64,000 nucleotides of DNA from a virus, in the IMG/VR virus record IMGVR_UViG_3300015263_000597, positions 1 to 64,000 of that record. The stretch is one strand, 5' to 3'. Positions 19,584 to 26,064 of this stretch are shown here, in pieces. The stretch's first letter is position 1, and the number at the start of each line of letters is the position of its first letter. The position numbers and the translations under genes are program-made. The notes beneath the pieces were generated by a model. That model saw nothing but the letters and a program-made list of their open reading frames with translations, ran no database searches and was not told the DNA's origin.

Positions 19584-19732
19584 AGCAAGAGCTGTGCCAA
19601 ATGGTCTCATAGCGTAGAATACGCCTAGGCACTTGGCTACACGGGCTCTAGACCACTAACTGCACCGTACCCGTAGCATAGAATCATCCAATGATTTGGA
19701 CTTATTCAAATTTCTGGATACGGATTTTTGGA
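19584..19732 (-). promoter_or_regulatory. sigma54 promoter P1 with triple upstream box array
   Basis: TGGCACAGCTCTTGCT (19599-19584); 14-bp boxes at 19687-19700, 19705-19718 and 19719-19732. Confidence 0.8.
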
Positions 19733-19927
19733 TTCCACCTGGCTATCTAGCTCGTCTGCGAATCTCTCCAGAGCTAGCAGTATGATCTCTGTCATGAAGG
19801 CCGGGCGGTCGGTCGCTCCAGGCTTCCGCCAATCTCGTTTAACCGGTATCCGTATCTGTTCACGAATGGCGTTTAGTCGCGCCCATAGGTCGGGGGGTAT
19901 GTTACGTAGATGGTAGTTATGGGCCAT
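19706..19927 (-). CDS. Arc/ribbon-helix-helix-like regulator
   Basis: NYHLRNIPPDLWARLNA...MTEIILLALERF. Confidence 0.6.
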   Translation of the reverse strand: MAHNYHLRNIPPDLWARLNAIREQIRIPVKRDWRKPGATDRPAFMTEIILLALERFADELDSQVESKNPYPEI

Positions 19928-19929
19928 TG

Positions 19930-20274
19930 TTAGCACCAGTTTATGGGGAGGGGGATGCCCCCCCCCCCCCCCCCCCCCCCCCCCCCCCCCCCCCCCCCCC
20001 CCCCCCCCACCGCAGAGTCATCGACGACATGCTGATCATGAGTATCAATGATCCGCTCTGCTCTAGCTACCAGCCGCTCTGACAGTTCCCACATGGTCTC
20101 AGCGCCCTTGCGAGGGCGGTTACCAGCCATAAGGGACGACAGGGCAGTACACGCGCTCTGCACCGTCTGGATCGTGCTGTTCAGCTCATAGCCAACAGCG
20201 CCAGAGTGCTGAACAAGAGCCCAGCTGAGGCAGTTGTAGTGTTTGTCGAGGGCTTTGCGGGTGATAGCGGTCAT
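19930..20274 (-). CDS. hypothetical protein; 3' end unreliable because of a poly-C tract
   Basis: AGGAGA RBS downstream of hammerhead 1; the poly-Gly comes from the homopolymer. Confidence 0.5.
   Translation of the reverse strand: MTAITRKALDKHYNCLSWALVQHSGAVGYELNSTIQTVQSACTALSSLMAGNRPRKGAETMWELSERLVARAERIIDTHDQHVVDDSAVGGGGGGGGGGGGGGGGGIPLPINWC
19958..20008. repeat. 51-nt C homopolymer (probable sequencing/assembly artefact)
   Basis: uninterrupted C run. Confidence 0.8.
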
Positions 20275-20301
20275 GGTATGTCTCCTGATCTGTGGTTGGT
20301 T

Positions 20302-20355
20302 GGCTCATCAGTGACTAGGTACCACCTAGCCAGACGGGGCGTACCCCGTTTCGCC
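20302..20355 (-). ncRNA. type II hammerhead ribozyme 1
   Basis: minus strand GGC-GAAAC-GGGG-tacg-CCCC-GTC-TGGCTAGG-tggta-CCTAGTCA-CTGATGA-GCC: complete catalytic core and stems I-III. Confidence 0.88.
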
Positions 20356-20583
20356 TTAAACTGAGGCAGTCATTAGCTGCACAGACGCACTGAGGAGAGA
20401 GTCTGCCTGAGCAATGCCTGCCTTCATCCACTCTCCAAACCGAGGGTGGCGCTTCTCAGATTCGGTGAAGATCGTCCAGTCAGGAACGGTGTTGTCTAGA
20501 CGGGCAAGAGCGAAGGCACGAATGGCCTTTTCTTCGAGGGCGGACTCTTCGTCGAGCATGTTGCTGGTGTAGATGGCGGTCAT
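20356..20583 (-). CDS. hypothetical protein
   Basis: MTAIYTSN.. with TAGGAG RBS; leader shares GACTAGGAGCAAGAC with the gene starting at 19528. Confidence 0.6.
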   Translation of the reverse strand: MTAIYTSNMLDEESALEEKAIRAFALARLDNTVPDWTIFTESEKRHPRFGEWMKAGIAQADSLLSASVQLMTASV

Positions 20584-20639
20584 GGTCTTGCTCCTAGTCG
20601 GTGTTGGTCTCTGGGGCGCGTCCCCCGTTCGATGAATAC

Positions 20640-20682
20640 AGTGTAGGACAGGGCTCTGCAAAAGTCAACCCTCTTTTGCAGA
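20640..20682 (-). promoter_or_regulatory. sigma70-type promoter with operator-like inverted repeat
   Basis: TTGACT-17 nt-TACACT; TCTGCAAAAG-N8-CTTTTGCAGA spans the -35 box. Confidence 0.7.
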
Positions 20683-23669: not shown

Positions 23670-23909
23670 CTCGCTTCACCGTCCGTTTTTCCAGAACTCG
23701 TGCATTAAGGTTAGTAAGTCGACATCACCCCACCCCACCCATACGGCAAACCCAGGCGACAATCTAGGGGGCCTTCCAGAGTGACAGTCAACAAACCCCG
23801 CAGTGATAAGGTGACAGGGGATATCACAAGCTTTCGCCATGCCATCGATTACGCGTCGAATGGCCCGACAATCATTACTGTCGAATGGCGCTTCTTCAGT
23901 TCGTAACAT

Positions 23910-24467
23910 CTACCTATCCCCTAGCAATTGTCCGACATCTGGTGTGTACACTGTGAACGTGTCTCGCTCGTTAACTGGTGACATCGAAGGCGGGGCATTG
24001 CTCAGTGTTTGCACTCCAGCACATTCTCCGTCTGCCGTATACTTGAACACAGCCCAGAAATACGCAGGCTCAACAGCCTCATCCCTAGAGACGTGAAGAA
24101 ACGGAGTAGGCTCCGCACTGTACACATACCCGTCTTCGAGTCCGTTAAGCTCTCTAGCAGCATCCAAAGCTCCTCGCCAGAAATCAAGGGCCTGATCTGG
24201 GATGCTGGCGTAGTCACGAATGAGACAGGCCCCCGACATGTCCTCAATCCACGTAGCCACTTCCTCACTCCAACGGTAGGAAAGAACACCAGGGCTAGAC
24301 CAGCAATTGCAGTGGCCAGCACGTGGGCAACATCCGATACCTACGCGGAAGGCCGCAGTACTGGAGGTAGCACTAGCAGCACGAGTTGACGCCGTGCGGG
24401 TGCTTTTCTTTGCACGAGTGAAATCGAAGGTGTTGTCAGAGCGAACGGGCACAGTGTAGTAGTTCAT
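23910..24467 (-). CDS. hypothetical protein
   Basis: 185 aa ORF in the leftward cluster. Confidence 0.5.
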   Translation of the reverse strand: MNYYTVPVRSDNTFDFTRAKKSTRTASTRAASATSSTAAFRVGIGCCPRAGHCNCWSSPGVLSYRWSEEVATWIEDMSGACLIRDYASIPDQALDFWRGALDAARELNGLEDGYVYSAEPTPFLHVSRDEAVEPAYFWAVFKYTADGECAGVQTLSNAPPSMSPVNERDTFTVYTPDVGQLLGDR

Positions 24468-24629
24468 GTCTGCTTTTCCAGTCAGTTAGTGCCGTTTCCG
24501 GCGTGTACCAGTCTCTATAGCAAACAGCGTGCCAGGTGGTAGTTACGTCTTGTTTACGCCTAATGGTCGTCTGTAGAGGACGGTATGGGCCGTATGACGC
24601 CCTGTTTACGCCCTGTCCATGACTACGGA

Positions 24630-24768
24630 TCCAAAATACTGAATCCAAGAATCTGGATTCTCCAAGATTCTGAATACTGCACATGCTACTGATGTCAGCT
24701 CACACCAGCGAGGATTCAACGTCTGCGGGCAGTTTGATGCTACTCGTCCATGTGGCACGCGTCTTGCT
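24630..24768 (+). promoter_or_regulatory. sigma54 promoter P3 with triple upstream box array
   Basis: TGGCACGCGTCTTGCT (24753-24768); boxes at 24630-24643, 24644-24657 and 24661-24674. Confidence 0.8.
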
Positions 24769-24820
24769 AAGTAGTATGGTGGACGCGACAAACAACCTTC
24801 AAAAGGAAAGTAGCCGACTC

Positions 24821-25036
24821 ATGACCACCACCGAACAGCAAACCGCCCGTCTCTGGTTTCTCAATAACGCCCGCGCCTACGTGGATGACTGTGGAGAGGT
24901 CGACATCACGACCCTGTGCGAAGACTGGGCGGATCAAGCACGCGTCCGTATGGGCCGCAACGGGCTTGACAATGACCACCCTGCGCATACCATCGCCATA
25001 CAGGCTTGCGAGGACTTGGGGCTGGACACGCCATGA
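24821..25036 (+). CDS. hypothetical protein
   Basis: MTTTEQQ.. with AAGGAAAG RBS; first gene after P3. Confidence 0.6.
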   Translation: MTTTEQQTARLWFLNNARAYVDDCGEVDITTLCEDWADQARVRMGRNGLDNDHPAHTIAIQACEDLGLDTP

Positions 25037-25495
25037 CCAGAATCACCAGAATGGCGCAAGGGCTTGGTACGAGCGGCAGACGGGACGGGAGCCGGGACAA
25101 TGACTACCCCTATTGCTAAAGAGCCTTGGATCTCTATCACGTACAGCGAAGAAGCTCAGGCTGACTTTGGGCGCCCATGGAGTACAGGCCGCCGTATGAA
25201 CGTGCACCACGCGTTCGCTATTGGCGCACTGACAGAGACGCCCGAAGGAACCGTGTTCGCCGAAGCGTACGAGAGCAACGTTAAACCTGAGTACTTTGGC
25301 AAGGAATACCCACTGAGCACTATGAAGCGAGTGTTGATTACTACAGGCCGGGATACAGAGCCCACCGATGCAACAGGACAGAAATCGATCTTAGACCTCG
25401 TTAAGGAGGGGACCCGATGAGCCAGAAACCCCCTACTCGTAAAGGCGCTGCTGGGCAGTTCAGCTCCTTGAATCCAAGTTCCTGAACTCTCCAAC

Positions 25496-25939
25496 ATGTA
25501 CCACGTGGAGATGTTGATGGCAATGCTAACAGAATCAACGTGGATACGGGAAAACGTTAACGCCCCTTTAGGTGCGTGCAAAGAATCAAGTCACGCATTT
25601 GTAGAGGCGTTCCCGGACTACGAGGTAAGGTGCGGGTTTTTCCACTCGACACTTTGGGGTGCTAGACAGCATTGGTGGTGTCGACACAAGATGACGGGAA
25701 AGATCGTTGATCCTACGGGTGAGCAGTTTCCAGACGGCGCCTTGTTTCCCTTGTCGGATGCCTACTATGAGGATCTCACGGACTTGTCAGAAGAGGAGCT
25801 ACACAGCAAGGTCCCTACAGGAGTGTGTGCAGAATGCGGGGGGCCTGTCTTTAACCTAGACACGTTTTGCACAGCTAAATGCGCCGAGTTGTGCATCGGG
25901 GAGCTGAACCAGAGGTTAGCGTGCGATTCGGATTCTTGA
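25496..25939 (+). CDS. phage protein with transglutaminase-like C/H/D motif and C-terminal Cys cluster
   Basis: GACKE..QHWWC..IVDPTGEQF; CAECG..FCTAKC. Confidence 0.55.
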   Translation: MYHVEMLMAMLTESTWIRENVNAPLGACKESSHAFVEAFPDYEVRCGFFHSTLWGARQHWWCRHKMTGKIVDPTGEQFPDGALFPLSDAYYEDLTDLSEEELHSKVPTGVCAECGGPVFNLDTFCTAKCAELCIGELNQRLACDSDS

Positions 25940-26064
25940 ATCCAAATTCCTGGATTCTCCAAGATTTTGAAGCTGTCTATGCTTCTCAATAGGCCCTGAA
26001 CCAACAAGGAATCAACGTATAGGGCCTATCCTAGGCTACTCCCACATCTGGCACGGACCTTGCT
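25927..26064 (+). promoter_or_regulatory. sigma54 promoter P4 with triple upstream box array
   Basis: TGGCACGGACCTTGCT (26049-26064); boxes at 25927-25940, 25941-25954 and 25958-25971; IHF-like AATCAAcgtaTAG in between. Confidence 0.8.

Follow-up and report, generated by a model that had tools for sequence, protein, structure and literature searches.

Sigma-54-type promoters and box arrays of the phage

The DNA described here is a window of 64,000 bp, which comprises bases 1-64,000 of the complete 77,687-bp virus record IMGVR_UViG_3300015263_000597. The record represents an uncultured phage with a G+C content (GC) of 52% and a siphovirus-like set of genes, including a family A DNA polymerase, a helicase, the large terminase, a portal protein, the major capsid protein and a tape-measure-sized protein of 2,097 amino acids (aa). 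Its accessory region carries five putative sigma-54-dependent promoters (P1-P5), each preceded by an array of short palindromic boxes. P1, P2 and P3 read genes leftward, from 24.5 to 18.5 kb, and P4 and P5 rightward, from 24.8 to about 31.3 kb. A sixth promoter, P6, lies beyond the window and follows a strong predicted terminator (genome 73530-73557) that closes the late block. The positions of all these features are collected in Table 1.

The six promoters are perfect copies of TGGCAC-N5-TTGCT, of which only 0.04 would be expected in the genome from its base composition. All of them have the same orientation as the gene that follows, with a ribosome-binding site (RBS) and a start codon 50-60 nt downstream, and in all six the consensus runs on past the -12 element as TTGCTAnrTAG. 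The near-match TGGCAC-N5-TTGCC at 48227-48242(-) is located within the terminase gene, has no array and was taken as a chance occurrence. Another candidate, TGGCAA-N5-TTGCA at 28583-28597(+) (TGGCAAGCTTGTTGC), has the correct GG-N10-GC spacing and stands 24 nt before an ATG at 28622; it is likewise devoid of a box array, and it is either a weak activator-independent site or a product of chance. Sigma-70 promoter matches between 17.5 and 32 kb were not enriched over shuffled sequences, which neither supports nor excludes additional promoters.

Upstream of every promoter, with a gap of 62-95 nt to the -24 element, there are three 14-bp boxes of the consensus TYCAR-N4-YTGRA, two of them abutting and the third separated by 3-4 nt. 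Positions T1, C3, G12 and A14 are invariant in the 24 phage boxes, and A4 and T11 are retained in 23 of them. The two-box pattern was observed six times, compared with none in 100 shuffles, and all but one of the box matches scoring at least 9 of 10 in the whole genome fall inside arrays. Successive boxes of an array are spaced by 14 and 17-18 bp from centre to centre, which leaves only the outer two on one helical face. Array 3 is common to the divergent promoters P3 and P4. Array 1 overlaps the 3' end of the open reading frame (ORF) 19706-19927(-), and Array 2 that of ORF 22776-23225(-). The spacers of P1, P2, P4 and P5 also contain the heptamer ATGCTAC or a one-mismatch variant of it, about 7 nt promoter-proximal of the array, and a second similar copy 16-21 nt before the -24 element. 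The genome has 13 exact ATGCTAC copies, five of which, each on the strand of its promoter, are found in these spacers; the spacers of P3 and P6 contain none.

A preliminary description of the window, made from its sequence, had reported four of these promoters. Its four elements are present with the coordinates and strands it gave, its gaps of 87, 89, 78 and 77 nt between the proximal box and TGGCAC are exact, and both the layout of two abutting boxes plus a third one 3-4 nt off and the ATGCTAC-like motif about 7 nt from each of the four arrays were found again. The count, however, has to be raised to six, with 24519-24534(-) inside the window and genome 73723-73738(+) outside it. The second ATGCTAC-like copies and the continuation of the consensus beyond the -12 element had also gone unreported there. 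One further array-like stretch, at 25459-25503, consists of one good box and a half box between two genes of the P4 operon, and may be a decayed unit or a stand-alone site.

Counterparts in a relative phage and in bacterial chromosomes

A scan of IMG/VR with the two-box pattern returned one true relative, here called G001. It is a complete phage of 77,728 bp with direct terminal repeats and a GC of 41%, compared with 52% in the phage studied here, and the capsid proteins of the two are 36-38% identical. G001 contains five forward matches to TGGCAY-N5-TTGC, whereas the reversed control pattern gave none. Three of the five are accompanied by a triple array with the same box order, gaps of 96-105 nt, an ATGCTAC-like motif and TAG after the -12 element, and in all three the -24/-12 element reads TGGCAT-N5-TTGC. 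The GG-N10-GC spacing is exact in each of the nine units of the two phages (six here and three in G001), and the extension past the -12 element is also kept in all nine. Since so distant a relative, as judged by capsid identity and GC, carries it three times, the sequences indicate that the promoter-array unit is maintained across deep divergence. No small DNA-binding protein common to the two phages was found by BLASTP. Among 50,697 phage records, no match was obtained by megablast of the regulon region or by tblastn with the capsid protein, and searches of IMG/VR with the extended promoter pattern, a 202-aa regulon protein and a capsid profile returned G001 alone or nothing. A search of 5.8 billion proteins gave no homologue of the 202-aa protein, and the DNA polymerase matches unrelated phages at less than 31% identity.

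The box pair was also searched for in one genome per species of 185,579 prokaryote species and in a metagenome collection, using the box-pair pattern alone with no promoter term. At least 240 loci were obtained (at least 120 from genomes and at least 120 from metagenomes). Among the 240 loci listed, 31 have a sigma-54 element that faces away from the boxes and lies no more than 170 nt from them (40-86 nt), compared with 1.5 expected from the background rate in those loci, an approximately 20-fold excess. Among the matches listed, 11 of the 15 genome loci with this arrangement are labelled as Acidobacteriota (Aminicenantes, Vicinamibacterales or other Acidobacteria), compared with eight of the 105 without it (Fisher p=7e-8). 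In 14 of 16 units tested, the downstream ORF encodes a protein of 900-1,100 aa with CarboxypepD_reg and OMP_b-brl_4/TonB_dep_Rec domains, that is, a TonB-dependent-receptor-like barrel. The host units consist of two boxes with centres 17-19 bp apart, occasionally abutting, and the proximal box lies 53-86 nt before TGGCAY; TCCAA-N4-TTGGA pairs before TGGCAY-N5-TTGC are found, for example, in L035, L042, L047, L051, L097, L099, L103, L108, L137 and L139. A third abutting box was seen in one of 25 units and is weak. One Aminicenantes chromosome contains at least five such units and 23 perfect boxes, whereas the control gave five matches. Of 401 Acidobacteriota genomes sampled, 12 have the composite pattern and none has the control pattern. 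The host gaps form groups around 54, 64, 74 and 84 nt (for a period of 10-11 bp, R=0.52 and p about 0.001), a support that is overstated by the relatedness of the loci.

Because the box-pair scan finds sigma-54 elements, mostly in Acidobacteriota, before receptor-like genes, the TYCAR-N4-YTGRA boxes appear to serve as upstream activator sites in a sigma-54 regulon of Acidobacteriota that is apparently undescribed. A literature search returned no paper on this box/sigma-54 regulon, and a 2025 survey of sigma-54 regulons is without mention of Acidobacteria. The only homologue of a protein of either phage in the host loci is a generic DNA polymerase match on one contig (L197/L015); the loci are therefore not hidden copies of the phage. 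One rpoN copy is present in each of three Acidobacteriota genomes with the box regulon, and candidate host genomes contain 14-30 genes each for bacterial enhancer-binding proteins (bEBPs). The Aminicenantes chromosome CP070825.1 is an example of a regulon-positive genome. The scan of genomes for boxes upstream of sigma-54 promoters, as proposed in the preliminary description, thus brought out a regulon. A single box near one bEBP gene in genome G002 is not accompanied by a sigma-54 element and appears to be a chance match. There is no conserved gene neighbourhood around the host receptor genes, and the -24 variant (TGGCAC or TGGCAT) shows no clean relation to host GC.

Two further kinds of loci were noted. 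The 2,159-bp metagenome contig Ga0114899_1027237 (L235) carries at least eight tandem copies of AAACCTCTAACG, then four similar boxes and, 41 nt on, TGGCACGCGTCGTGCT, which is one base off P4; it is otherwise without similarity to the phage and may be another mobile element dependent on the same activator. A recurrent element with three TCCAA-N4-TTGGA-type boxes is present in several virus contigs (L002, L006, L009 and L010 from IMG/VR; L182 and L233 from metagenomes), where neither flank has a sigma-54 element and an IHF-like (integration host factor) sequence, AATCAACGCCTGTG, is close by.

Phage-encoded regulators and genes under the promoters

No Sigma54_activat domain is encoded by the complete phage or by complete G001, and neither of them has a sigma-54 gene or a sigma-54 DNA-binding domain (Sigma54_DBD). 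The Pfam scan covered all predicted phage proteins except three structural ones (L027:3120-5675, the tape measure protein and the major capsid protein), and among the scanned proteins there was no HTH_8 or other Fis-type helix-turn-helix (HTH), no activator-like AAA+ domain and no sigma factor or RNA polymerase domain. The preliminary description, which had seen no activator in the window, is thus borne out for the whole phage. At least three Xre-type HTH proteins are encoded. The same description had assigned the protein of 19706-19927 to the ribbon-helix-helix (RHH) class; this label is unsupported, as the protein has no Pfam or PHROG match, its Atlas matches are below 0.9, and its low-confidence structure model has two helices without the N-terminal strand.

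Nearly all products of the regulon are orphans in Pfam and PHROGs. The exceptions are a class-3 lipase-like protein, a DUF5675 protein and the 141-aa product of the P3 operon (23244-23669(-)), a pyrimidine-dimer DNA glycosylase (PF03013, E=5.5e-23). The characterization of the genes under the promoters as small and unknown therefore does not hold for all of them, given the glycosylase and P6, which heads a plus-strand block running off the end of the record, in the direction of the replication genes found at the record's start. Between cistrons of the P2 operon there are two type II hammerhead ribozymes (Rfam RF02276), at 20294-20356(-) and 21904-21969(-), with scores of 40.6 and 49.5 bits at a gathering score of 37, and for this reason the P2 sigma-54 transcript is probably self-cleaved. 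No strong terminator was predicted in the P5 block, and the P5 transcript would extend across 26115-31335. At the start of this block, ORF 26115-26732(+) of 205 aa overlaps ORF 26031-26762(-) of 243 aa, and codon statistics are ambiguous; the plus-strand ORF is favoured, because it has an RBS and its distance of 50 nt from P5 resembles that of the first gene in each of the five other units.

Three other features of the record were noted. An unbroken run of 51 C residues at 19958-20008, within ORF 19930-20274(-), would translate as 17 glycines; it is the sole long homopolymer of the genome and may be either genuine or a poly-G artefact of sequencing or assembly. A tRNA-Met (CAT) gene is present at 15335-15410(+), and a weak tRNA-like Rfam match, at the gathering threshold, at 53302-53416(+).

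Table 1. Promoters, box arrays, spacer motifs and operons of the phage (window positions unless marked as genome).
Feature	Position	Strand	Description
P1	19584-19599	-	TGGCACAGCTCTTGCT, perfect match; 55 nt before ATG at 19528, GGAG RBS
P2	22638-22653	-	TGGCACAGCTCTTGCT, perfect match; 60 nt before ATG at 22577
P3	24519-24534	-	TGGCACGCTGTTTGCT, perfect match; 51 nt before ATG at 24467
P4	24753-24768	+	TGGCACGCGTCTTGCT, perfect match; 52 nt before ATG at 24821
P5	26049-26064	+	TGGCACGGACCTTGCT, perfect match; 50 nt before ATG at 26115
P6	genome 73723-73738	+	Perfect match, outside window; array at genome 73615-73660, 62-nt gap
Array 1	19687-19732	.	Boxes 19687-19700, 19705-19718, 19719-19732 (scores 10, 8, 7 of 10); 87 nt from P1
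Array 2	22743-22788	.	Boxes 22743-22756, 22761-22774, 22775-22788 (scores 10, 10, 9 of 10); 89 nt from P2
Array 3	24630-24674	.	Boxes 24630-24643, 24644-24657, 24661-24674; weak fourth box 24616-24629; 95 nt from P3, 78 nt from P4
Array 4	25927-25971	.	Boxes 25927-25940 (degenerate), 25941-25954, 25958-25971; 77 nt from P5
Partial array	25459-25503	+	Box 25473-25486 scores 8 of 10; no sigma-54 element after it
ATGCTAC beside arrays	19673-19679(-), 22729-22735(-), 24683-24689(+), 25979-25985(+)		Last copy reads ATGCTTC
Second ATGCTAC-like copies near -24	19614-19620(-), 22664-22670(-), 24737-24743(+), 26033-26039(+)
P1 operon	18475-19528	-	Four small orphan ORFs of 94, 104, 68 and 58 aa; no Pfam or PHROG match
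P2 operon	19706-22577	-	Eight ORFs, all orphans; no Pfam match
P3 operon	22776-24467	-	ORFs of 185, 77, 141 and 149 aa; no matches apart from the 141-aa ORF
P4 operon	24821-25939	+	ORFs of 71, 106 and 140 aa; 140-aa protein has a homologue in G001
P5 block	26115-31335	+	About 13 ORFs, mostly orphans; class-3 lipase-like protein 30074-30928; DUF5675 30925-31335

Discussion

Sigma-54 promoters do not open without an AAA+ activator, which is a signal-controlled ATPase. We consider, with a probability of about three in four, that the boxes are bound by a host bEBP, which activates the host sigma-54 holoenzyme at the six phage promoters; this activator would then probably set the time at which these phage genes fire. 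The earlier proposal of a host enhancer-binding protein in place of a phage activator is supported by the absence of Sigma54_activat and sigma-54 from the phage and by the chromosomal loci that combine the boxes with sigma-54 elements. In the proposed mechanism, host RNA polymerase with sigma-54 would rest on TGGCAC-N5-TTGCT as a closed complex, while dimers of the host AAA+ bEBP would occupy the TYCAR-N4-YTGRA boxes, approximately 85-140 bp upstream of the start site, form an active ring, loop to the promoter and open it with ATP. The divergent P3 and P4 on a single array fit the orientation-independent action of an enhancer. The phage would in this way have wired five accessory-region operons, and a sixth unit after the late-gene terminator, into a host receptor-gene circuit. 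The promoter-proximal pair of the phage array reproduces the host pair, and the third, distal abutting box may allow three dimers, that is, a full hexamer, to assemble on the DNA, which may make the array a stronger competitor for the activator. The host of the phage is probably a member of the Acidobacteriota; regulatory mimicry is the basis, and the only one, of this assignment.

Several observations weigh against this interpretation. Synteny did not point to a cognate bEBP: no host array has a bEBP gene at a distance of 8 kb or less, and none was found near arrays in four genomes. Some host loci are related to each other, so that their counts are not fully independent. A search for prophage relatives gave only weak matches to the capsid profile in three of the 401 Acidobacteriota genomes, which is no independent support for the host. 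The arrays were called helically phased in the preliminary description, and this is not established for the phage: with a period of 10.5 bp, the nine phage gaps yield R=0.44, which is not significant (p=0.19). An IHF or intrinsic bend between enhancer and promoter is common, although not obligatory; among the phage promoters, P5 alone has an IHF-like site (WATCAA-N4-TTR, at most one mismatch). Moreover, the TAnrTAG extension and the paired ATGCTAC motifs do not occur in the host units. A second factor, possibly encoded by the phage, may act at the ATGCTAC pairs and the extension.

The same phage-specific features bear on other explanations of the boxes. They could be mainly operators for a phage-encoded DNA-binding protein, either a repressor that turns the regulon off or a new type of activator, their likeness to the host sites being coincidental or secondary. 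Such a function would be in line with the preservation of box consensus and order in two phages of 52% and 41% GC, with ATGCTAC pairs restricted to the phages, with the rarity of the third abutting box in host units and with the Xre-type proteins of the phage. However, the box pair recurs at canonical enhancer distance in chromosomal loci that, apart from the generic polymerase match, lack phage homologues. The AAA+ activator that sigma-54 needs was not found in the phage, the two phages share no small DNA-binding protein in BLASTP, and the RHH protein put forward for this role has lost its support. We therefore regard an operator function as unlikely. The extension past the -12 element, 7 nt long and kept in all nine units, could also mean that a factor or polymerase specified by the phage reads the longer consensus TGGCAyg-N3-cTTGCTAt-TAG and that the likeness to sigma-54 elements is convergent. 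This is highly improbable, given that the scanned phage proteins include neither an RNA polymerase nor a sigma-factor domain, that the GG-N10-GC spacing is exact in 9/9 units and that in host units carrying these boxes the sigma-54 elements are plain, with no extension.

The number of sites raises a different question, namely whether the arrays serve mainly as decoys. About 18 high-affinity sites per genome, multiplied by replication, could titrate the host activator off the receptor promoters and lower receptor synthesis, for example as a block to superinfection, in which case transcription of the phage genes would be a by-product. Three sites in the phage arrays compared with usually two in the host, the small number of such units per host genome and the nature of the targets, outer-membrane receptors being generally known as a common class of phage receptors, would all be compatible with titration. 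Pure decoys, however, would have no need of the promoter, RBS and ORF that accompany every full array at fixed distances in both phages, and the sole promoterless array is the degenerate partial one at 25459-25503. Taken as a whole, this explanation appears quite unlikely. Somewhat less remote, but still unlikely, is a combination of both effects, in which early and accessory phage genes would be coupled to the circuit of a receptor that is possibly used for adsorption, and in which the replicated three-site arrays would out-compete the two-site host promoters until receptor synthesis collapses. If this were true, a single regulatory mimicry would provide both condition sensing and superinfection exclusion, and enhancer sites of phages matched to host regulons could be used to assign hosts to uncultured phages and to discover bEBP regulons.

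If host activation, the reading preferred here, is correct, the placement of six operons behind sigma-54 promoters would mean that the timing of a large part of the phage programme is handed to a host sensor, and regulatory coupling of this kind between phage and host is rarely documented. To our knowledge, there is almost no experimental genetics in the Acidobacteriota and very few of their phages are known. The results offer a testable host assignment for two uncultured 78-kb phages and a first outline of a sigma-54 regulon, apparently not described before, with the consensus TYCAR-N4-YTGRA. They also provide a natural comparison of three-site and two-site enhancers, which bears on the assembly of bEBP hexamers on DNA.

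In the well-known enhancers of glnAp2 (NtrC) and norV (NorR), palindromic dimer sites lie approximately 80-140 bp upstream of the -24/-12 element and act in either orientation, and at norV all three NorR sites are required for assembly of the ring. The phage units resemble them in their palindromic sites upstream of -24/-12 and in an orientation-independent layout, and differ in that their promoters are viral. TYCAR-N4-YTGRA is not known to match the sites of NtrC, NifA, NorR or AauR, although the AauR site, TTCGG-N4-CCGAA, shares the 5-N4-5 geometry. The Acidobacteriota receptor units agree with the phage units in box consensus, in a centre spacing of 17-18 bp, in the side on which the promoter lies and in distance (53-86 nt in the host, 62-105 nt in the phages). 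They differ in having usually two boxes and one large receptor gene, and they have neither the third abutting box nor the ATGCTAC pair, nor the TAnrTAG extension. Among phages, Pseudomonas phage YuA has a sigma-54-like promoter, P015, confirmed by start-site mapping (PMC10914365, citing Ceyssens et al. 2008), so that the earlier statement that such promoters are unusual for a phage is only partly true. As is proposed here, YuA, a virulent siphovirus without an RNA polymerase or activator of its own, uses a host sigma-54-type promoter beside other promoter classes. The phage described here has no sequence relationship to YuA (Yuavirus) by megablast and capsid tblastn, and its six promoters form a regulon whose defined triple activator sites have a counterpart in a host regulon. 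The use of sigma-54 promoters by a phage is thus already known in kind from YuA. What is new is the size of the six-unit regulon, its conserved three-site design, its match to an undescribed acidobacterial receptor regulon and the host phylum that this match implies for two phages.

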